Source: Phycisphaerales bacterium (GTDB lineage: Bacteria; Planctomycetota; Phycisphaerae; WQYP01). Taken from it: 64,000 nucleotides of DNA. Location of the stretch: the NCBI GenBank assembly GCA_027451365.1, contig DAIDJN010000054.1, positions 3,690 to 67,689 of the forward strand, in the 5' to 3' direction. Below the pieces are notes generated by a model. That model ran no database searches. It was not told where the DNA came from and saw only the letters and a list, made by a program, of their open reading frames with translations. Positions 6,039-46,510 of the stretch are shown in pieces. The position numbers and the translations under genes are program-made. How positions within the stretch are numbered: the stretch's first letter is position 1; each line of letters starts with the position of its first letter.

Positions 6039-6137
6039 TGCACATTGCCCATGCAAAATGCGCTGACGGTTTGTTGGTCGGGCCGTTTGCGCCCAACGGC
6101 ACCGTGTCCAGACGCGGCAAAGATACATGGGGACCGC

Positions 6138-7463
6138 GTGGCTGAATCGTGGGTTGACATTCAACCGGTAAGCCGCCCGTTCCGCGCCACCGTCGCCGTG
6201 CCAGGCAGCAAAAGCATTACCAATCGGGCCTTGCCGATGGCCGCAATGGCCAGCGGACCGAGCCGACTTTCCGGCGTGCTGTTTGCCGATGACACCCGTC
6301 ACATGATTGACTGCCTGCGGCACCTCGGCGTAAATCTTGAAATTAACGAATCTGCATGTGAAATTTCCGTTTCCGGTTCCAGTCCCGCCTTCCCCATCGC
6401 AAACGCTGATTTATCCTGCGGAAATTCAGGTACCACCATCCGGTTCCTGACGGCCATTTGTGCCGCCATGCCCGGCACTTACCGCCTGGATGGTATTGAA
6501 CGCATGCGACAGAGGCCAATTGGCGAACTTGCAACGGCAATTGCCAGTCTGGGCGGAAATATTCAGTTCCCGCTGAATCCAGGCTTCCCCCCCGTTCAGA
6601 CAAGCGGCACCGGCCTTGCTGGCGGCCAATGTCGATTCAGCAATGTCAAAAGCAGTCAATATATTTCAGCCGTTCTGATGGCCGCGCCGCTCGCCCGGCG
6701 GTCTGTGGATGTCATTTTGGAAGGTCCCGTCACCAGTGAACCGTATGTCCGCATGACACTGGCCATGATGGAGCAATTCGGCATACGCACCTCGCAGGCC
6801 ACACTGGACCCCCAATCTCCTGAAATGGGCCGCGTTGTAACCATTGCCGCCAATCAGCCGTACACCGGCCGTGCTTACGCCATAGAACCTGATGCCAGCA
6901 ACGCGAGTTATTATCTGGCCGCGGCGGCTCTGGTGCCCGGCTCCACAGTCGTCATCCCCGGTCTTGGCCGCAATTCCCTTCAGGGAGATATGCTTTTTGC
7001 CGATGTGCTTGGACAAATGGGTGCCCATTTATTTCTGGACGCTGATTGCGTCCGCATGACCGGAACGGCCCGTCTTGGCGGACTTACAATTGACATGAAC
7101 TGCATTCCCGACATGGTACAAACGCTGGCCGTTCTGGCACTTTTCGCGGACGGTCCGACCCATATTTGCAATGTCGGCAATTTGCGGATCAAGGAAACCG
7201 ACCGCCTCGCCGCACTGGAAACAGAATTAACGAAACTTGGCGCGCAGGTACACACCACCGCGGACAGCATTACCATTCATCCGCCGGTACAAGTGACTCC
7301 CGCAACCATTGAAACCTATGACGACCACCGCATGGCGATGGCATTTGCGGTAGCCGGCCTGCGCGTGCCGGGGATCCGCATAAGCAATCCGGCCTGTTGC
7401 GCAAAGACCTATCCGTCGTTCTTTACTGATTTTGCAGCCGCGACTGCCAGCCAGACACTTTAA
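6138..7463 (+). CDS. aroA: 3-phosphoshikimate 1-carboxyvinyltransferase (EPSP synthase)
   Basis: PGSKSITNRAL, GNSGTTIRF, SSQYISA, RIKETDRL, DDHRMAM, KTYPSFF. Likely start is GTG at 6138. Confidence 0.96.
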   Translation: MAESWVDIQPVSRPFRATVAVPGSKSITNRALPMAAMASGPSRLSGVLFADDTRHMIDCLRHLGVNLEINESACEISVSGSSPAFPIANADLSCGNSGTTIRFLTAICAAMPGTYRLDGIERMRQRPIGELATAIASLGGNIQFPLNPGFPPVQTSGTGLAGGQCRFSNVKSSQYISAVLMAAPLARRSVDVILEGPVTSEPYVRMTLAMMEQFGIRTSQATLDPQSPEMGRVVTIAANQPYTGRAYAIEPDASNASYYLAAAALVPGSTVVIPGLGRNSLQGDMLFADVLGQMGAHLFLDADCVRMTGTARLGGLTIDMNCIPDMVQTLAVLALFADGPTHICNVGNLRIKETDRLAALETELTKLGAQVHTTADSITIHPPVQVTPATIETYDDHRMAMAFAVAGLRVPGIRISNPACCAKTYPSFFTDFAAATASQTL

Positions 7464-7587
7464 CCCGCGCCCTATGCCACATCCCGCGGCGCTGTGTGAA
7501 GAATCGCGGCAGGCAATACCCCAACGTTTCCCGTTTTTGACCAGTCTGATTTTTGCCGCGAAACATAAAATGGGTTATAAACTCGCC

Positions 7588-8610
7588 ATGACTCAGGCAC
7601 ATTCGGGAATTCAACCGCTGCAGGTGGGCATTATCGGCGACGGGGCCATGGGAACACTTTGCGCTCTTCTGCTGGCCGAATGCGGTCATTCCGTGCAACT
7701 TTGGGGCCGGCAAAGCCAGCGGGTGATGGAATTACGCACCGACCGCCAGAACCGCCGCTACCTGCCCGGCATAACACTGCCGGAATCCGTTCAACTCACC
7801 GATCAGGACACCGCCGTAGCCAGCCGTGCTGATTTTCTAATTTGCGCAGTCCCCACACAATACATACGTTCCATTCTGCAGCGCCTGGCACCGCACATCC
7901 CCGCTGGATTGCCCATCGTCAGCGTCGCCAAGGGAATTGAAAATCAGACACTCCTTCGTCCGACACAAATTATCCTGGATGTGCTTCCCGACCGGTCCGT
8001 GGCGGCTCTTTCCGGCCCGTGCATTGCCGGCGAAGCGGCCCGTCGCATGCCCGCCACACTGGTGGCCGCTTCCAGCGATCATGGCCTGGCCACCCGTGTT
8101 CAACAGGTCATGACAACACGCAGTGTTCGCATTTATCGCAATGCAGATCTGACCGGGGTGGAACTGGCCGGGGCCACGAAAAACGTCATCGCAATTGCCG
8201 CCGGTGTGCTGGACGGAATGAATATGGGCGTCAATGCGAAGGCGGCGCTCCTGACACGCGGTCTGGTCGAAATAACCCGCCTGGGCATGGCGATGGGCGC
8301 GCAAGCCGAAACGTTCAGCGGACTCGCTGGCCTGGGCGACCTGGTGACCACTTGTTTTTCCCAAGAGGGAAGAAACCGCGGCTTTGGCCAGCAAATCGGC
8401 CAGGGAGTCGGGCCGGAACAGGCCATGGCCGCCATGACCGGCGTCGTGGAAGGGGCCGCGACCACGCGAAGCGTCTTGGAACTTGCCCAGCGACACAAGG
8501 TCGAAATGCCCATCAGCGAAATGCTTTACTCGGTTCTGTTCCGCGCCAAACCGCCGGTCGCCGCTATTACCGAACTTATGAGCCGCCAGTTAAAAGCCGA
8601 ACTGACATGA
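7588..8610 (+). CDS. gpsA: NAD(P)H-dependent glycerol-3-phosphate dehydrogenase
   Basis: GDGAMGT Rossmann motif, NRRYLPG, KGIE, KNVIAIAAG, GLAGLGDLVTTC, RNR. Confidence 0.95.
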   Translation: MTQAHSGIQPLQVGIIGDGAMGTLCALLLAECGHSVQLWGRQSQRVMELRTDRQNRRYLPGITLPESVQLTDQDTAVASRADFLICAVPTQYIRSILQRLAPHIPAGLPIVSVAKGIENQTLLRPTQIILDVLPDRSVAALSGPCIAGEAARRMPATLVAASSDHGLATRVQQVMTTRSVRIYRNADLTGVELAGATKNVIAIAAGVLDGMNMGVNAKAALLTRGLVEITRLGMAMGAQAETFSGLAGLGDLVTTCFSQEGRNRGFGQQIGQGVGPEQAMAAMTGVVEGAATTRSVLELAQRHKVEMPISEMLYSVLFRAKPPVAAITELMSRQLKAELT

Positions 8611-9464
8611 CCACCAGCAATGCAGCAGAACGTTTCCACCGGTCGCTTCGCACGCTGTGCCGCCGGATGCGCGTGGCATTCGCTTTGCGCCTGGCGTTTT
8701 TCGTCACCGTCGGCAAACGGTTCACTGGCCAGCCCATTTTTGTTAATCAGGAGCCACGAGCATCCGAGTTGTCCTGCGGCTTAGCCATCGTATTGCCCGG
8801 AATTGAAGCCGCCGGGCCATTTCCCCAGGCCATCTGTCAGGGCATTCGTAACAGCCCCTGGCGCGGCGCGGTGGAAATATTTTACTGGGGCATTCCCTTT
8901 CCTGAAGGCTATTTTCCCAACGTTATCTGGCTGAAAAGGAATCAGTATCAGGCCGCCGGCCTCGCACAAAAAATTCAGGATTACCAGAAAGCTTATCCGG
9001 GCCGCCCGGTTCATCTGTTCGGCAACAGCGCCGGCGCCGGCATTGCCCTGCTGGCGGTGGAACGATTGCCCATCACCAGTCCTATAGACAGTCTGGTATT
9101 CCTTCAAGGGGCTGTTTCGCCGAATCACGATCTGACGATCGCTCTTGACCGCGTGAAAAAGGGCATCTTAAATTGCTGTTCCCATCGCGATTGGATGGTT
9201 CTGGCGCTGGGTACTTTTATTTTCGGCACGATCGACCGCCGCCATTGCGTCGCCGCCGGCTGCCGCGGCTTTCATATTCCCACCCAACCCGAAAAGCGGC
9301 GGTTGTATATGGAAAAGCTGGTCCAGAAAAAATGGGTTCCGGAGTGGATCGACCTCTACGATCATTGGGGTTCACACGGTTCATCCACTTCTCATAAATT
9401 TATTTCGCAACTGGTGATGCCCTGGCTGCTGCACGATACCGCCCCCGTGCCACCGGCAAATTGA
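8607..9464 (+). CDS. Alpha/beta-hydrolase-fold protein
   Basis: C-terminal part of ORF 8019..9464 from ATG 8607, which overlaps the gpsA stop; IVLPGI, GNSAG nucleophile elbow, SHRDW, GSH. Confidence 0.7.
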   Translation: MTTSNAAERFHRSLRTLCRRMRVAFALRLAFFVTVGKRFTGQPIFVNQEPRASELSCGLAIVLPGIEAAGPFPQAICQGIRNSPWRGAVEIFYWGIPFPEGYFPNVIWLKRNQYQAAGLAQKIQDYQKAYPGRPVHLFGNSAGAGIALLAVERLPITSPIDSLVFLQGAVSPNHDLTIALDRVKKGILNCCSHRDWMVLALGTFIFGTIDRRHCVAAGCRGFHIPTQPEKRRLYMEKLVQKKWVPEWIDLYDHWGSHGSSTSHKFISQLVMPWLLHDTAPVPPAN

Positions 9465-9503
9465 AAACTCAAGGTCGTTCCCTGATATTTATAATTTATA
9501 ATT

Positions 9504-10229
9504 TCAGGTACACGCCGTGGTGGATGGAACTTCACCGGCATCCCACAGGATCAATTGACCGGCCGAAAAAAAGGCCATCCCGAAGGCTGGCGATGCGGTT
9601 TGTATGATCTGCGAACCATTGGGCCGCGGCCGGGCCAGTGGTGTCAGGCTGCCCAGATTCTGGCTGCCATCCGCGCTTAGCACGGTGTATGTCCAGGTTG
9701 CCGGCGCGCTTTGCGAACCATCTGTTCCGCCATCTTTTTTTATCTGCACCGGGAACATGGCCGGCCACGCGGCGCAAATAAGAACCACACTTCGCGGCAC
9801 TGCTTCCGCGGTGTAGCCGACCAGCAATCCAATGTGAAACGTGTTTAACCCCAGCAGATGGGTGGTGGCCGGACTGTTTTCCAGCAGATTCAAAACCAGG
9901 GCATTCACATTGCCGCTGTCGGTTAAACCTTCCGGCATAGTCAGGCTGGTGGCGGGAGCGGTGTCGCAGTCGGGCGAAAAAATATGGGCTGCATATTTTC
10001 CTGCGCCGGATTCCAAGGCGGTGATTTTTACAATAAGGCCGCGCCCCACCGGCACAGCCCTTTTTTGGGTAAGCGCCACGCCCGCTCCGGACACGCGGGC
10101 GGCAGTTGTACCTCCGCCGGCAAGCAGGCTGGAATTGGTGTTGATCTGATCAATAATCAGGTTCACGTGGCGGGCAATATTGTGCCATGGCTGGCGATCT
10201 GCAATCCATGGGGAAAGCGGGCTTTGCAT
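9504..10229 (-). CDS. Phage tail-tip-like protein of unknown function
   Basis: 241-aa ORF; the C-terminal FPVQIKKDGGTDG..ATWTYTV..RPRPNG..LWDAGE resembles, from recall, tail-region proteins of planctomycete prophages. Confidence 0.5.
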   Translation of the reverse strand: MQSPLSPWIADRQPWHNIARHVNLIIDQINTNSSLLAGGGTTAARVSGAGVALTQKRAVPVGRGLIVKITALESGAGKYAAHIFSPDCDTAPATSLTMPEGLTDSGNVNALVLNLLENSPATTHLLGLNTFHIGLLVGYTAEAVPRSVVLICAAWPAMFPVQIKKDGGTDGSQSAPATWTYTVLSADGSQNLGSLTPLARPRPNGSQIIQTASPAFGMAFFSAGQLILWDAGEVPSTTACT

Positions 10230-10337
10230 GCACGATCCTGTGGCAAAAGCGATGACATATTAATCGGGCCGCGCCGGGAACAAAGCCAGTGTTCCCTTAC
10301 GCCCGCAAATTTAGGATTCATGGAGCCTTGGCGGGCT

Positions 10338-11129
10338 TCATACAATTTCCGGAAACGCGGCATTAAAATCCGTCTGCTGAAATACCACAAACCGCGCCCA
10401 GCCGTTGCCGCTGGTTTGCGAGCCATCCGTCACAATGCTGGCGGCGACACCCGTGGGGATGGAACCATCCACATTTTTGAAGACCGCATACTGATCCCAT
10501 GTTTCCGGGTTATATGCAAAGCTGTAGGTGTTGCGGTACCAGACGCCATCATGTGTGGTGCCGTTAATGGGCAGGCAAAGCCAGGTTCGCGGCGGAAAGC
10601 CGCGCCAGGTTGCGGAATTTACCTTGCCCGCGTAGGCCAGCGTAACAGATTCCGGATCTGTGGTTTGCAGAAAATGAAAATTAATGGTGGCGTTGAGCAC
10701 CAGGCGGTGAAGGTCGGCCACCTGGGTTTGGCCATTGCCGCCGGCGGGGGTATAGGTGACGGTGGCCAGATTGTTGGAAGCATCATAATGCCCCGTGGCC
10801 TGCACCAGACCGGCATTAAAACTTTTAAGATAACTGGCGGGGTAAAGGTCCCACTGGTATTCGCACAGCGTGTCAAAACAATCAAACCCCTGACAGTGTG
10901 TGCGGACATTGCGCACCACTGCTTCGGGCCGGTCCGGGTGGGCTGCGCCAATACCGGGAATGACAAACCCGCTGACGGTGTCGGTAGCCGACACCGCCAT
11001 AATGGGCCGCAGCGTAGGCGAGTATTGAGACAAGCCGGTGATCTGAAATTTCCGGATAATGCGGTAACCCGACGCGGTCCATTCGAGCGGCTGGGGTAGA
11101 AGAAGGTCTTCTTTGATACTGATCGGCAT
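10338..11129 (-). CDS. Phage tail/baseplate-like protein
   Basis: 263-aa ORF with IPGIGAAHP, GKVNSATWRGF..TWLC..G..Y.F.YNP.TW and a C-terminal VFQQTDF; pattern recalled from siphovirus-like tail-module genes. Confidence 0.55.
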   Translation of the reverse strand: MPISIKEDLLLPQPLEWTASGYRIIRKFQITGLSQYSPTLRPIMAVSATDTVSGFVIPGIGAAHPDRPEAVVRNVRTHCQGFDCFDTLCEYQWDLYPASYLKSFNAGLVQATGHYDASNNLATVTYTPAGGNGQTQVADLHRLVLNATINFHFLQTTDPESVTLAYAGKVNSATWRGFPPRTWLCLPINGTTHDGVWYRNTYSFAYNPETWDQYAVFKNVDGSIPTGVAASIVTDGSQTSGNGWARFVVFQQTDFNAAFPEIV

Positions 11130-11297
11130 GTAAAGCTATAGCAATGGGAATGGCGGATAACAGCGCGGCGGGCGGCCTTGTTGCGCCAGAAGTCTCTCTG
11201 TCAGCAAAGCCTGTTTTGGTCCCAGTTGACCGGGAGTATCTCAATTTCCGCCTCTGGCCGTTGACTTTCCAACTGATATCCCGGATGTTTTCATTTT

Positions 11298-11936
11298 ATG
11301 GTGATGCAACTGCTGATCGCGACTTCCAATGCCGGCAAAATTCGGGAGATTACCCATGAAATTGCGGCCGCGGGACTGGGAACGGTTCAACCGCGCAGCC
11401 TGGCCGATTTTCCCGCAATCGCGCCTGTGGTGGAGGATCAACCAAGTTTCGCGGGCAATGCCATGAAAAAGGCCGCCGCGTATGCCCGCGCCTTCGGCGT
11501 GCCCGCATTGGCGGACGATTCCGGATTATGCGTGGATGCGTTAAATGGCGCGCCGGGCGTGTTGAGCGCACGATACGCCGGCGAGCCGTGCAACGATTCG
11601 GCCAATAATCACCATCTGCTGCGGGAACTTCGGAATGTGCCTCCCGAAAAGCGCAGTGCCCGGTTTGTATGCGCTGTGGCCCTGGCAACGCCTTCGGCGA
11701 ATCTGGCCCTTATTGTGGAATCTTTGGAGGGGCAAATTATTGATTCGCCGCGCGGTGCCAACGGCTTCGGTTACGACCCGCTATTTTTCCTTCCGCACCT
11801 GAACTGCACCACCGCCGAACTGACGCTGCCGCAAAAGGCGCTGCTAAGCCACCGCGGGAAGGCGGTGCGTCAGATGATTGACTGGCTCAAGCGGAATTTG
11901 CCCGCCATTGAAGCGTGCGCCGCGGCGGCAGAATAA
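11298..11936 (+). CDS. rdgB: Non-canonical purine NTP pyrophosphatase (HAM1 family)
   Basis: ATSNAGK, ADDSGLCVDAL, PGVLSARYAG, GFGYDP, SHRGKA. Confidence 0.95.
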   Translation: MVMQLLIATSNAGKIREITHEIAAAGLGTVQPRSLADFPAIAPVVEDQPSFAGNAMKKAAAYARAFGVPALADDSGLCVDALNGAPGVLSARYAGEPCNDSANNHHLLRELRNVPPEKRSARFVCAVALATPSANLALIVESLEGQIIDSPRGANGFGYDPLFFLPHLNCTTAELTLPQKALLSHRGKAVRQMIDWLKRNLPAIEACAAAAE

Positions 11937-12010: not shown

Positions 12011-12907
12011 TCATGACCGCTGATATACCCGCACGTAATCCACTTCAAACAATCCGGGAAAGCGTGTGCCGGCCGGGTTGCCGCCCGCGGTGCCGCCCAC
12101 CGCAAGGTTTAAAATCATATAGGCCGGCTGATGGAACGGGTTAAAATTATCAAATCGCGGATCCAGCGTCTGCGATAAATCCACATGATTGTATAAATGT
12201 CCATCCATATACAGTCGAATAAATTCCGGCCGCCAGTCCATGACCCAAAGGTGAAAGTCCGCGGCCCATCGCGGATTGTGCAATGCCGCAACAGGCGTAA
12301 ACACGCTGCGCCACACCGCCTGGCCGTTGTTATTCTGCCAAGCCACGTTGGCATTTACATGACCGGCGTAATATTCCATGATGTCAATTTCCCCGCAGGC
12401 GGGCCAAGGTTTGGCCACACCAAGCATCCACCAGGCCGGCCATAGACCTGGTCGAATGTCAATGCGTCCGCGCATCTCGAAAATGCCATATTTCCAGGAA
12501 TGAAGGCCGCCGGTGGTCAGAGAGCTGGATGTATACTGCGCAAACTTTCGCTGCTGCTGCCATCCGCCGGTGGGCCGGTAATTCGGATTTGTCACGCGCT
12601 GGCGTCGGGCTTCTATAATCAGTCGGCCATCCCGGCAAATGGCATTCTGCGGCTGATACCATTGCGCTTCATGGTTGCGAACAAAGCCACGCTCATAATT
12701 CCAGTTTTTCGGATTCGGACGTCCATCCTGATTGAACTCATCATGCCATGCCAGTCGATAACCGCGGGGAACGCGAAGATAAATGGCCTGGGCGGTTGAA
12801 AAATCCAGCAAGCCAACCGCGCTGGCGGTACCCAATGCGCTGGCGGCCAGCGCGCCGCGGATAATCGATCTGCGTGAGGCCCGTGGCGCGTCCAATAGTG
12901 ACGTCAT
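12011..12907 (-). CDS. Tat-exported GH16 glycoside hydrolase (laminarinase-like)
   Basis: Tat motif SRRSII; WHDEF, GLWPAWW, catalytic GEIDIME, LNLAVGG, VDYVRVYQ. Confidence 0.92.
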   Translation of the reverse strand: MTSLLDAPRASRRSIIRGALAASALGTASAVGLLDFSTAQAIYLRVPRGYRLAWHDEFNQDGRPNPKNWNYERGFVRNHEAQWYQPQNAICRDGRLIIEARRQRVTNPNYRPTGGWQQQRKFAQYTSSSLTTGGLHSWKYGIFEMRGRIDIRPGLWPAWWMLGVAKPWPACGEIDIMEYYAGHVNANVAWQNNNGQAVWRSVFTPVAALHNPRWAADFHLWVMDWRPEFIRLYMDGHLYNHVDLSQTLDPRFDNFNPFHQPAYMILNLAVGGTAGGNPAGTRFPGLFEVDYVRVYQRS

Positions 12908-13081: not shown

Positions 13082-15058
13082 TCAGGGCAATCCGTTTCCT
13101 GTACCCGCGGGGGCGTGTTTAATTTCCCCTGGAAGTCCGGTATTGAACGGCGAAGTGCCGCTGGCCGGACTTGTGGTTGCCGCAGGCCGCGTGGTGGTCG
13201 GCGCGGTGCCGTTGGCCCGCGGCCGATTAAGCGTTGCGTAGAGCGTGCGGCGGCGATGGCTGATTTTCTGAATATGGAAAATGGCTGGAATTTCCTGTGA
13301 CTGGCACAATTTATACAGCATCACGACGATACGCTGATACGATAGCGCGATATATGCCTGATGTGGATCAAACTTCGGCGAAAACGGGTCCGGTGCGCCG
13401 CCCAAAGCGTTGATCAGCCCAGGCAATTCCGCATCACACGCAAGTGTCACAGTGCGGTGCGAAAGTGGCCCGCGGTAATACAACTGAATCGGTTCCGGCT
13501 TGAGCGTTTTGGCCGGCACCAACTTATTTATTCCGCCGCCGAACAGTTTGCCATTTTTGGCAGCGGCGGGCGGGCCGGCCGGGGCAGTTGCCGCCGGCAT
13601 TGTGGCCGCGGTTGGCAGCGGGTAATTGACCGTAATGGTATTCCCAGGACTGATATACAAACTTCCGGGCACCAGAGAGGGCACTCTGCCGATAATCGCC
13701 ACCCGCTGGCGGCCCGTGGTGGTGACATACACAATTGCAGGCTCATTGGTCTGCAACACATCGAGGCTGAATTTTCCACCGACAATCTGGGAATAAATCA
13801 GGCCGGAATGAATGTGCCGCAATGCGCGGTACCCCAAAATGCGCATGGATGGCTGCGCCAGCGTAAGCAACCGTGTGAATGCAAGTGTGGCGCTGACATG
13901 GTCGCGGCAGCGTTCCAAGGCGCGCACCGCAGCCCCCTGGAAGGTGTTAGCGGGGTCATCGGCAATTTTCACCATTTTGACTATCGCGTCCTGATCGCCC
14001 AGCAATGTGCCGGCCTGCAGGCAATAAAATCGTACGGATATGTGGCTTGAAGCATAATGCTGCCGCAAAATCGGAATAATGGTGCGGCCCAACTGCCGCA
14101 GCGCCATGGCGAGCTGTCGATGCGGCGCGGTCGGATCATGCAGATCTGTGATCAAGCGGGCCGCCTGACTTTCCTTGAAACCAGGTACATCCTGCTCCAG
14201 ATACAAGTGCAGCGCCAGATTCACAAATCGTGAAGGGTTATGCTGATATTTCCGCGGCACATGCAGACTGATCAGCACATCATTTTCCGCGGTTGCGGCC
14301 GGCGGAAAGCTTCCATAGCGTTCGTTGATAATGCGTTCCACAAGTGCTGCGATTCGGAATGACGGCGTATAAAGCTGCAGGAGAACGGGCAAATTGGCGG
14401 TCACCACGCCGCCGCCGATCACCCGGCCATTCCGGGTAAGTGCGGTCGGTTTCAGAAGATGGCCTGTTTTGGAAAATGGATTGCAGAATACCGGTCCCCG
14501 GCCATGGGCGATCGGAGACGATTGAAATTGTCTGCGTAAATGCACGCGCAACGGCACCGGCCACAGGAGGCCATTTTCCAGGCTGGTCGTTTGAGATCCC
14601 GGCAGTGCGGCAACATAAAGATCAAATTTTGTGCCGCGCGTGGCCAGCGCGGGAATAATACCCTCTACAGCCACCGCGGAAATTTCCCGTGATGAAAGGA
14701 TCTGCCGCGGGTCGTATTGACCGGTATTTCGCGAACGAAAGCCGACGCCGTTTTTCAGCAGCCGGTTGATCATGATATGCCGGATTTCCGGAGGCATTTC
14801 GCCGCTGCCGGTATTCGGCAGCCCCGCGATTACGCCCCAGCCGCGCACGAGGGTGGGCGTGTTGTAAGCCAGCGTGGCCACAGAACTGATGGTTCCCTTA
14901 AGACCGGAATAAATCGTCGGCTGCGGCAGGCGATCCTGTCGGGTAATTGGCGGCGCTCCACTGCGCCGCGCGCTGTTGCAGCCCGCAAGTGGCAGTGCGG
15001 CCGCCGCCGCAATTCCAACCAGTCCGGCAACGCGGAAAAAATGACGCTTGTGGCGCAT
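13082..15058 (-). CDS. FlgI (P-ring)-like lipoprotein with HEAT-repeat extension
   Basis: Lipobox LAGC after ATG 15058; VRGWGVIAGLPNTGS, FDLYV, TSLENGLL resemble the FlgI N-terminus; helical repeats follow. Confidence 0.75.
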   Translation of the reverse strand: MRHKRHFFRVAGLVGIAAAAALPLAGCNSARRSGAPPITRQDRLPQPTIYSGLKGTISSVATLAYNTPTLVRGWGVIAGLPNTGSGEMPPEIRHIMINRLLKNGVGFRSRNTGQYDPRQILSSREISAVAVEGIIPALATRGTKFDLYVAALPGSQTTSLENGLLWPVPLRVHLRRQFQSSPIAHGRGPVFCNPFSKTGHLLKPTALTRNGRVIGGGVVTANLPVLLQLYTPSFRIAALVERIINERYGSFPPAATAENDVLISLHVPRKYQHNPSRFVNLALHLYLEQDVPGFKESQAARLITDLHDPTAPHRQLAMALRQLGRTIIPILRQHYASSHISVRFYCLQAGTLLGDQDAIVKMVKIADDPANTFQGAAVRALERCRDHVSATLAFTRLLTLAQPSMRILGYRALRHIHSGLIYSQIVGGKFSLDVLQTNEPAIVYVTTTGRQRVAIIGRVPSLVPGSLYISPGNTITVNYPLPTAATMPAATAPAGPPAAAKNGKLFGGGINKLVPAKTLKPEPIQLYYRGPLSHRTVTLACDAELPGLINALGGAPDPFSPKFDPHQAYIALSYQRIVVMLYKLCQSQEIPAIFHIQKISHRRRTLYATLNRPRANGTAPTTTRPAATTSPASGTSPFNTGLPGEIKHAPAGTGNGLP

Positions 15059-15435
15059 GTTCACTCCAGGGGCGTTTGCCCGTTGTGGCCATGGGTTCGG
15101 CATGTTGTGCCGCTGCGGTTTGTCCCCGGCCAAGTCTGTAAAGCATACCCCTTCCACGTGCCCCATGACAAGGCAGAATATCCGCTGCGGCATCCGGAGA
15201 TTTAAACAAGGCCTGCGCGGCCAGGCATGTTGCAGCGCCGCAAGCGTGGTACACGGGGCCCAATGAGAGCTTGTGACGTCAGAAAAATCGCCAGAGGTGG
15301 GCCGGCAACCGGATATTGATCTGGCCATGTGGAAGCATTTCCGAGGGTCGAAACCCGCGGTCGGCGGCGGTTGAGGCATATCGGGATGGTGTCTGTATTG
15401 TGCCGGACGCGGTGCGGGTCCGGATAGCGTATGCG

Positions 15436-45821: not shown

Positions 45822-46510
45822 TTATTTCTGCAGGGATGCGGACATGGACGCCACGATATTGAACGCCCGTTCTACATCAAATCCGGAAAAATCGGCTGCC
45901 CGCAGTACAGGTCTCAATTGCGGTTCAACCTGCTGCCGCAGCGTGGCCAGTCGCATAGCGGAAATGTTGACTGGATCATTTCCTGGTATGGCCAGTTTTT
46001 GCCGCACAAGTCCAATCGTATCCGGAGTTTCGGGCTTTATCCCAAGCTTTTGTACCGCGTAATCAAGGTCGAAAAAATCGCGCACGGCCACTTGTCGCCG
46101 TGCCAGCGCGGCCCGAAATTTCTCTGCGAACGCCTCCAGCCGTGAAATGCGGTTGATGGCCACCGGGGCAATCAGTGAATTGATCGAAATCGGATCTCGC
46201 AGGATCGTTCGCACGGAGCCGTTGACGGTGTCAAGAAGCAGCGGCTCGCGCAAGGCTACTTCAAGTTTGATGGTATCGCTTTGCGATTCCACCAACGGCG
46301 TATATCCGATCTGGCAGATAAAGACCCCTGCGCGCCCGCGTCATCAGGCCGCCCCTCGCCAGACGGCTCAGGAGTTTGCGTTCATGCTCCGGTTGCATGC
46401 GCAGTACCGACGTGGTCAGGTCTCCAGTGCGCAGTGTCCGCAGTTTGCGCATCTGGATATTCGCAAAAAACTGAGTTTCAAGTGGCCCAAGGTGTCGCTT
46501 CGTAGCCGTA
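45822..46510 (-). pseudogene. Collapsed AbiEi/AbiEii type IV toxin-antitoxin remnant
   Basis: Antitoxin-like N-terminus (LETQFFA.IQMRK..LSRLAR.G...R.RRGLY; probable start reads ACG) fused near 46315 to a toxin-like C-terminus (IKLEV, AEKFRAAL.R....RDFFDL). Confidence 0.75.

Follow-up and report, generated by a model that had tools for sequence, protein, structure and literature searches.

A phage-like gene pair at a cellular locus

The subject of this study is a stretch of 64,000 nt from the metagenome-assembled genome of a Phycisphaerales bacterium (GCA_027451365.1, contig DAIDJN010000054.1, positions 3,690 to 67,689 of the forward strand; hereafter the window, in whose coordinates unprefixed positions are given), and within it two adjacent open reading frames (ORFs), genes A and B, which we relate below to a set of virion genes dispersed over the same genome. 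Both ORFs lie on the minus strand, neither contains an internal stop codon, and together with the elements around them they make up the following locus:

10338..11129, minus strand: gene A, 263 aa, ATG start, uninterrupted ORF, predicted Dit-like virion protein (Dit, distal tail protein)
9504..10229, minus strand: gene B, 241 aa, ATG start, uninterrupted ORF, putative tail-tip protein following Dit
11135..11160, minus strand: bipartite promoter-like motif TTATCC-N13-CTATAGC, ending 5 nt before the ATG of A
10277..10297, minus strand: hairpin GGGAACA...TGTTCCC in the 108-nt spacer between A and B, from the minimum free energy (MFE) fold
9469..9485, minus strand: terminator-like stem-loop with a T-rich tail, 19 nt past the stop of B, from a consensus scan only

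Virion genes are dispersed over the genome

With phage proteins of related genomes as tblastn queries against the whole genome of the window (G000), followed by the head locus of the relative G015, we found at least six modules of virion genes, namely A-B and five on other contigs:

C63: a ParB_N-like gene, a gene for a 401-aa ATPase-like protein (phrog_11143), a 217-aa gene and the large terminase
C56: the capsid, three small genes, a 527-aa ORF and a double glycosyltransferase
C70: an adaptor, a head-completion gene, a tail-completion gene and a 128-aa tube-like gene (tube135), together the connector module
C81: genes C and D
C22: the portal

The terminase was assigned to PF04466/phrog_2, the HK97 capsid to PF05065/phrog_10, the adaptor to phrog_442 and the portal to phrog_2662 (PF04860 in G015). 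Virion genes at the five further loci are single copy, and there is exactly one PF05065 capsid gene in this genome. Apart from the portal, which is at a contig edge, each module has cellular genes on either side and lies in the interior of a contig of 52-182 kb, the neighbours of the modules including glmS/EF-G, UDP-glucose dehydrogenase, hisH/hisA, TatD and HAD; Pfam and PHROG scans of the flanking ORFs revealed no integrase or replication genes beside them. In most carriers the tube-like gene is the last of the connector module. A 178-aa ORF that follows this gene on C70 was rejected as a further member, as its composition suggests a wrong-frame artefact and it has no homolog in the sampled loci.

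A promoter-like motif heads the modules

The reverse complement of 11130-11160 reads TTATCCGCCATTCCCATTGCTATAGC-TTTAC-ATG. The -10-like box seen before A in an initial annotation made from the sequence is real, and forms one half of a bipartite motif common to the dispersed modules, TTATCN-N13-15-CTATAGC, which in four of them precedes the start codon by 5-6 nt. Upstream of A, 11 of 13 genomes have TTATC[CG] (or a one-base variant), 13-16 nt, a second box (CTATAGC, or CTACAGC, CTATCAG or CTACAC), 5-6 nt and the ATG; G007 has the second box only, and G015, in which A lies mid-operon, has neither. Elsewhere in the genome of the window the motif takes these forms:

Portal module: TTATCC-N14-CTATAGC-N6-ATG
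ParB-to-terminase module: …CTATAAC-N6-ATG
Connector module: TTATCT-N13-CTATAGC-N5-ATG
C-D module: motif 16 nt before the homology-supported ATG; a GTG at 6 nt is out of frame
Capsid: degenerate copy TTATCG-N14-CTATGAA about 110 nt upstream

A position weight matrix (PWM) trained solely on the A-upstream sites of other genomes was run over this genome, with the reversed genome as null. Four matches scored 22.6 or more against a null maximum of 21.7, at A, the portal, C and one intragenic position, and the site upstream of A received the maximum score. The match at C44:11301 was dismissed as the head of a module, lying as it does inside a 1,066-aa ORF where it is probably due to chance, and the short ORFs behind matches at C34 and C75 are not genes. 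A second PWM, built from the five sites of this genome and run on 27 loci of eight other genomes (846 kb, both strands), gave 28 matches at or above 14 compared with 12 in the null. Of the 28, seventeen stand ahead of genes of the system: five directly upstream of A, five of the adaptor, two of the ParB-like gene and one of C, and four at 110-140 nt from the capsid, with some of these 17 motif-to-gene assignments made by coordinate comparison. The 5 nt between motif and ATG at A would suit the geometry of a leaderless transcript.

Two further occurrences were seen outside the modules. At C4:9547 (minus strand) a relaxed form of the motif, with one mismatch per box, stands 6 nt before the ATG of a 273-aa ORF whose N-terminal sequence suggests a putative phosphoesterase-like protein; metallo-phosphoesterase genes also occur near tail genes on the viral contig L131. 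A strict match with a spacer of 18, which may be a chance occurrence, lies at C56:2415-2445 in the interval from glmS to an EF-G-like gene; it is 126 nt ahead of the start of the latter and 4.7 kb upstream of the capsid.

Distribution and linkage among relatives

A word-indexed search returned 17 relatives of A and 33 of B, and the few with names come from Phycisphaerae/Planctomycetota metagenome-assembled genomes (MAGs). All genomes compared here are MAGs, in 10-580 contigs. A is present in 15 of the 24 other genomes of the same family, representing nine of 17 genera, and the adaptor in exactly those 15. Capsid and portal were each found in 14 of the 24, both missing from the A carrier G023 (69% complete), and the terminase in 13, made up of 12 of the 15 A carriers and one weak partial match in the non-carrier G004. 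No match to A, adaptor, capsid, portal or terminase was obtained in 16 genomes of other families of the class. The capsid yields one match per carrier. With the query employed, C-D was not found in 5 of the 15 carriers.

B follows immediately downstream of A in all 12 loci that hold both genes. None of 13 flanking genes of the window that were tested adjoins the pair in 12 relatives, the same-genus G001 included; A-B therefore stays paired while its surroundings change, and has no conserved insertion site. The degree of clustering differs between carriers. In this genome and in G001 all modules are on separate contigs. G002 has A-B divergent from the head-tail adaptor, head-completion and tail-completion (gp17-like) genes, and holds on a single contig the capsid at ~18 kb, A-B with the connector module at 52-56 kb and the portal at 66 kb. 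In G010, large terminase, B, A, glycosyltransferase and HK97-type capsid lie within 10 kb. The A locus of G015 reads 135-aa gene, 147-aa gene, 188-aa gene, A, B, C, and the head locus of the same genome has adaptor, capsid, portal and terminase within 16 kb, broken by a sulfotransferase and a sulfatase-maturase-like gene.

Descent and selection

On a tree of AroA from 30 genomes, 15 of the 16 carriers form an exclusive clade (support 100/99). The tree of A and B recovers all six within-genus pairs at 98-100, its deeper nodes being unresolved and G015 standing on a very long branch. Identities to this genome show capsid (65-89%) and A (mostly 68-88%) to be better conserved than AroA (57-73%). 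The GC content of the system genes, overall and at third codon positions (GC3), falls within the range of the genome.

Ratios of non-synonymous to synonymous substitution rates (dN/dS), computed by the NG86 method for within-genus pairs and to be read with the caution that dS exceeds 1 in several pairs, where NG86 is unreliable, were as follows:

A: 0.031-0.257, median 0.057 (6 pairs)
B: 0.097-0.242 (5 pairs)
Capsid: 0.060
Terminase: 0.21
Adaptor: 0.18-0.20
C: 0.11-0.17
Glycosyltransferase: 0.18-0.26
AroA: 0.063-0.235 (7 pairs)

In matching genome pairs the dS of system genes is close to that of AroA (G007/G021: A 0.41, B 0.38, C 0.42, AroA 0.40).

Gene A resembles a distal tail protein by position

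Neither A nor B matched Pfam, PHROG or NCBIfam, nothing below E 0.1 was returned for either by PDB sequence profiles, and tblastn placed neither in 50,697 records of sequenced phages; A is thus a member of no Dit or tail family curated in Pfam, PHROG, NCBIfam or the PDB profiles. The family of A is nevertheless large and unannotated. An exhaustive profile search gathered 2,154 cluster representatives at E<=0.001, the best 150 of them mostly ~240-290 aa long, and 137 of 139 distant members scanned had no PHROG match. Members were found by profile scan on 12 IMG/VR contigs. On L131 and L133 a tape measure gene (phrog_9483; E 7e-27 and 5e-30) comes immediately before the A-like gene, with a gap of 4 nt or an overlap, and on L127 the A-like gene abuts an unannotated 609-aa ORF in tape measure position, in the order portal, protease-capsid, Neck1, terminator, tube135-like gene, two small ORFs, 609-aa ORF, A-like gene. 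Because these viral relatives sit directly downstream of the tape measure, where siphoviruses have their distal tail protein, we regard A with fair confidence as a Dit-like virion protein. The likeness to siphovirus Dit extends to a length of 260-300 aa and perhaps to the N-terminal fold, which is weakly similar to tail-tube, terminator, Dit and Hcp proteins; A differs in its lack of a curated Dit, Pfam or PHROG match and in its place in this genome, where it heads its own module with no tape measure gene adjoining.

In the AlphaFold model of A (predicted local distance difference test score, pLDDT, 73), residues 1-99 align to terminator, tube, Dit, hub, tailocin, type VI secretion system and gene transfer agent (GTA) chains in 26 of the 50 listed rows, counted from their descriptions, at VIA-align Z values of only 3.9-5.4, which lie under the tool's own noise guidance. 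A virion chain of the GTA of Rhodobacter capsulatus (RcGTA), 6tba_4A, is among these weak matches (row 12, Z 4.7). For the C-terminal domain, residues 100-263, no fold was identified, and a Foldseek search of the PDB gave nothing at E<=0.001 for the model of A or that of B. The ESM Atlas neighbours of A (scores 0.95-0.96) are unnamed clusters that are 75-96% viral. Residues N171, W175, R181-T182, L184, F204 and W211-D212 are the invariant blocks of its alignment.

Gene B as a putative tail-tip protein

In the model of B (pLDDT 74) an N-terminal helix is followed by an S1-like OB-fold (residues 61-153) and by a conserved beta domain at the C-terminus. The OB-fold, with matches up to Z 7.6, is the only fold that structure searches found for B, which was also considered as a gp27-like tail hub (Tal) protein, and ESM Atlas neighbours (0.80-0.82) provide leads only. 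Invariant blocks of the B alignment are G167-G168, G171, A177, Y181, R202-P203, G205 and L228-E233. The C-terminal domain matches an ORF in the tail region of a contiguous prophage in G004 (hhalign 90%, E 1.4e-6). From its position after Dit we infer that B is a tail-tip protein of unassigned type. A kinship of B with the genes behind the A-like genes on three viral contigs was considered and abandoned when no relation was detected.

The G004 prophage itself (G004:C3:545000-584999; L094, L095) resides in a genome of the same family that does not carry A, and no A-like gene was detected in it. It possesses replication initiation and primase/helicase genes, a small and a split large terminase, a ParB-like gene, a 789-aa portal, a head protein and the tail region with the B-like C-terminal domain.

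Further genes of the modules

Directly after the capsid, at C56:8660-9993 (L041), lie three small conserved genes for predicted membrane proteins of 109, 222 and 67 aa, each with a hydrophobic segment. In the 222-aa family, the N-terminus is lipobox-like in four of six members, and all six have a transmembrane segment at the C-terminus. Such a layout may be that of a holin-like protein with a unimolecular-spanin-like protein, making the trio a candidate lysis cassette. At C56:11869-13425 (L041), a protein of ~450-520 aa is made up of two glycosyltransferase-like halves (phrog_14775 and phrog_14945). This double glycosyltransferase accompanies the capsid module in 9/9 sampled carriers, in G010 is located directly upstream of A, and might glycosylate virion proteins. 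A sigma-factor-like ORF (phrog_351, E 2e-14) was seen at C22:3729-4565 (L096), 2.7 kb from the portal, and is a candidate reader of the common motif.

The surroundings of the pair in the window

Pfam annotation of 48 window ORFs (from ORFs >=90 aa plus one self-defined coordinate set; E<=1e-4) describes entirely cellular surroundings for A and B, including also complex-I-like subunits, ParB, Rho, CoaE and SMC. The nearest annotated genes are:

6045-7463: EPSP synthase
7432-8610: GpsA
8604-9464: alpha/beta-hydrolase, a weak match below the cut-off
11298-11936: Ham1/RdgB
12011-12907: GH16

The picture drawn by the initial annotation, of two intact, co-oriented ORFs among housekeeping genes, agrees with the ORF coordinates and these flanks, and its failure to recognise integrase, terminase, capsid or lysis genes in the 64 kb is matched by the 48 scanned ORFs, in which none of these families occurs. 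The hairpin to which it drew attention is present in the MFE fold but is not supported as a meaningful feature: the 108-nt spacer folds no better than shuffled sequence (z -0.19; 85 of 200 shuffles at least as stable) and no T-run follows the hairpin, leaving a regulatory role unsupported. The hairpin looks lineage-specific, because A and B are just 9-26 nt apart in 7 of 11 other A-B pairs, a comparison of spacing only. Terminator-like sites near A-B numbered eight against 2.5 expected in the consensus scan of the region. As for the other foreign DNA in the window, said to have collapsed around an intact pair, an AbiEii toxin-like ORF is indeed truncated (45822-46295, minus strand; 157 aa, profile positions 98-211 of 238), and the Y1 element was not seen in the 48-ORF Pfam scan, no further search having been made for it. 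A 765-aa ORF at 13082-15379 (minus strand) matches FlgI, the flagellar P-ring protein, in part (residues 168-396, E 2.4e-16), and far exceeds the 343 positions of the FlgI profile.

A dispersed virion gene set and its possible use

Gene content, dispersal, co-occurrence, selection and the common motif, all directly observed, make it very probable that this genome carries a co-regulated, selected and dispersed set of virion genes with A-B as its tail tip. According to the initial annotation the pair may be a single locus of a dispersed, domesticated GTA-like or tail-like machine, and single-copy virion genes at five further loci, with the pair kept in nine genera, support that reading. The protein motifs it named coincide with invariant alignment blocks of A and B, and the selection it supposed is evident in the dN/dS of the pair (A 0.03-0.26, B 0.10-0.24); the opposite picture, of genes confined to one strain, a dN/dS near 1 and a genome otherwise empty of virion genes, was not encountered. 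Other expectations were borne out in part. A search for scattered single-copy virion genes found capsid, portal and terminase and did not find a tape measure; a structural match to virion proteins exists for the N-terminal domain of A, weakly (Z<=5.4), and is absent from the Foldseek results; and orthologs occur in nine genera, with 15 of 16 carriers in one AroA clade, while flanking synteny is absent.

Several marks of a GTA can be recognised. Phage-derived capsid, portal, terminase and tail genes lie in the host chromosome; no replication, integration or lysogeny module goes with them, and they are not packageable as a unit; and they show vertical inheritance and purifying selection, with the placement of G012 and the divergent A-B of G015 as exceptions. 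A GTA-like particle appears the likeliest use of the set, because replication, integration and lysogeny genes are missing and genes so scattered could not be packaged together as particle cargo. We therefore favour, with some reservation, a domesticated and working GTA-like particle system encoded at multiple loci. More tentatively, at somewhat less than even chances, it may represent a previously undescribed GTA of the Planctomycetota (Phycisphaerae), arising from an independent domestication of a siphovirus and arranged as at least six modules bound by one promoter into a regulon; a dedicated promoter would then, with the same tentativeness, start transcription at or beside the start codon in most modules.

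The history we envisage begins with the ancestor of one clade within an uncultured Phycisphaerae family, which would have acquired a siphovirus-derived virion gene set that was afterwards inherited vertically, maintained by purifying selection and broken up into small modules by genome rearrangement. Because the same element heads the modules, one dedicated transcription factor or sigma factor would be expected to switch them all on together. Co-transcription in this manner would produce mostly leaderless mRNAs, from whose products a tailed particle would assemble, its tube ending in a Dit ring made of A with B beneath this in the tail tip, and such a particle might transfer DNA.

A number of observations weigh against this account. 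Protein queries from G015, G002 and G021 found no tape measure or tail-chaperone gene in this genome, where tape measure families gave sub-threshold matches only, inside very large ORFs; genes in tape measure position were seen only in G015 and G002. No endolysin was identified, and the possible holin- and spanin-like reading of the post-capsid trio is drawn from hydropathy. The portal ORF here measures 339 aa (C22:1-1032) compared with open frames of 428-583 aa in the ten other carriers whose portal gene is unbroken; its homology ends 130 nt before the end of the contig and the last ~130 nt contain no continuation in any frame, such that either the gene is interrupted or the assembly breaks there. 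In other carriers, the portal match of G021 has three stop codons, the best terminase match of G019 has one, and the terminase matches of G003, G007 and G019 are broken into fragments, of which some lie at the ends of contigs. The weak fold match of A and the unreliable NG86 values at high dS, given above, also count here. At a threshold of 17 the first PWM finds no genome-wide enrichment of the motif (27 matches versus 37 in the null), and its signal therefore resides in top scores and position, not in abundance. G012 lies outside the carrier clade on the AroA tree, and the A-B of G015 (31% identity) and G012 (48% identity) are more divergent than AroA identity predicts, so that descent may not have been strictly vertical. 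Finally, the sample consists of MAGs only, and some bins may be chimeric.

Selection, co-occurrence and a common motif speak for the usefulness of the set and not for its purpose, and a functional, co-regulated particle could serve an end other than gene transfer, such as head-bearing killing or delivery, a defence-related decoy in which invading DNA is sequestered or packaged, or another cellular role. The double glycosyltransferase in all nine sampled carriers, which is unusual for described GTAs, would fit such a particle, as would a tail made atypical by the missing tape measure gene. The combination of terminase, portal and HK97-type capsid, however, implies DNA packaging, and the domesticated elements known to us to keep all three are GTAs; we consider a particle without gene transfer unlikely. 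The interrupted genes invite another explanation, that an old prophage was scattered by rearrangement and is now decaying, its genes persisting only because loss is slow, with A-B a functionless remnant. The truncated portal, the stops in the G021 portal and G019 terminase, the lack of a tape measure or endolysin and the absence of C-D from 5 of 15 carriers would all follow from decay, and the modules do look like cryptic prophage remnants in being isolated phage structural genes among cellular genes with no integrase. Such remnants are typically strain-specific and decaying, whereas most components here are single-copy in nine genera, eight genes have dN/dS values of 0.03-0.26 and a dS that equals the value for a housekeeping gene, capsid and A are better conserved than AroA, and the promoter-like motif is kept at module heads in several genera. 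Neutral remnants would not keep these traits across genus-level divergence, and we accordingly judge a decaying prophage improbable.

That the dispersal is an artefact of fragmented or chimeric bins, and the genes those of one or more active, mobile temperate phages, seems to us very improbable. Fragmented MAGs make up the whole sample, and the compact loci of G010 (terminase, B, A, glycosyltransferase and capsid) and G015 (adaptor, capsid, portal and terminase) are what such phages would show. Against this, the modules, the portal excepted, are embedded between cellular genes within long contigs, the single contig of G002 holds capsid, A-B with connector, and portal at well-separated positions, and even the compact head locus of G015 is broken by its sulfotransferase and sulfatase-maturase-like gene. 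Unlike the true prophage in G004, the modules have no integrase or replication gene beside them; their composition is host-like, and A and B are without a match among the sequenced phages.

Comparison with known gene transfer agents

To our knowledge, GTAs have been demonstrated in only a handful of lineages, namely Alphaproteobacteria, Bartonella, Brachyspira, Desulfovibrio and Methanococcus, and literature searches, conducted mostly at title level, found no report of a GTA for Planctomycetes, Planctomycetota or Phycisphaerae. The set described here is like RcGTA in combining phage-derived head genes with a siphovirus-type tail, in lacking replication and integration genes and in being inherited with its host. 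No sequence relation of A or B to RcGTA was detected in curated families or PDB profiles. In RcGTA a single cluster contains the head-tail genes, whereas the present set, in another phylum and with another promoter motif, is divided among at least six modules; a GafA-like regulator was not identified here, and RcGTA is an agent of demonstrated function.

Described GTAs consist of a main head-tail locus and auxiliary loci switched on by a dedicated activator. The extra loci of RcGTA, for head spikes, tail fibres and lysis, are activated with the main cluster by GafA, which in R. capsulatus binds near -10/-35 elements. Reports on Caulobacter crescentus describe a primary locus of 21 genes and auxiliary loci under the control of GafYZ/RogA, enrichment of GafY upstream of nine of the ten most induced loci, and experimental proof that 8.3 kb of host DNA is packaged. 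In the induction of several loci together by one activator the Caulobacter system resembles the one proposed here; it differs in having its head-tail genes in one 21-gene locus and regulators that are DnaA-domain-IV-like and sigma-like. The Bartonella GTA (BaGTA) is described as a two-phage chimera that is coupled to run-off replication and integrated by antitermination, and provides a parallel in domesticated loci of separate phage origin that are co-expressed through a dedicated transcriptional mechanism.

Conclusions

Prophage finders, or the reading of a single window, would dismiss modules such as A-B as remnants, and it is co-occurrence and the motif, followed over whole genomes, that reveal a system. 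If the interpretation as a GTA is true, it would add a new phylum to those known to possess such agents, with an extreme architecture in which head and tail genes are scattered and joined by one promoter-like motif, and would mean that genome-wide dispersal of virion genes is compatible with the assembly of a particle. The motif offers a directly testable handle on the system in these uncultured Phycisphaerae, and, on the same condition, a motif of this kind could help to find cryptic systems in other phyla.

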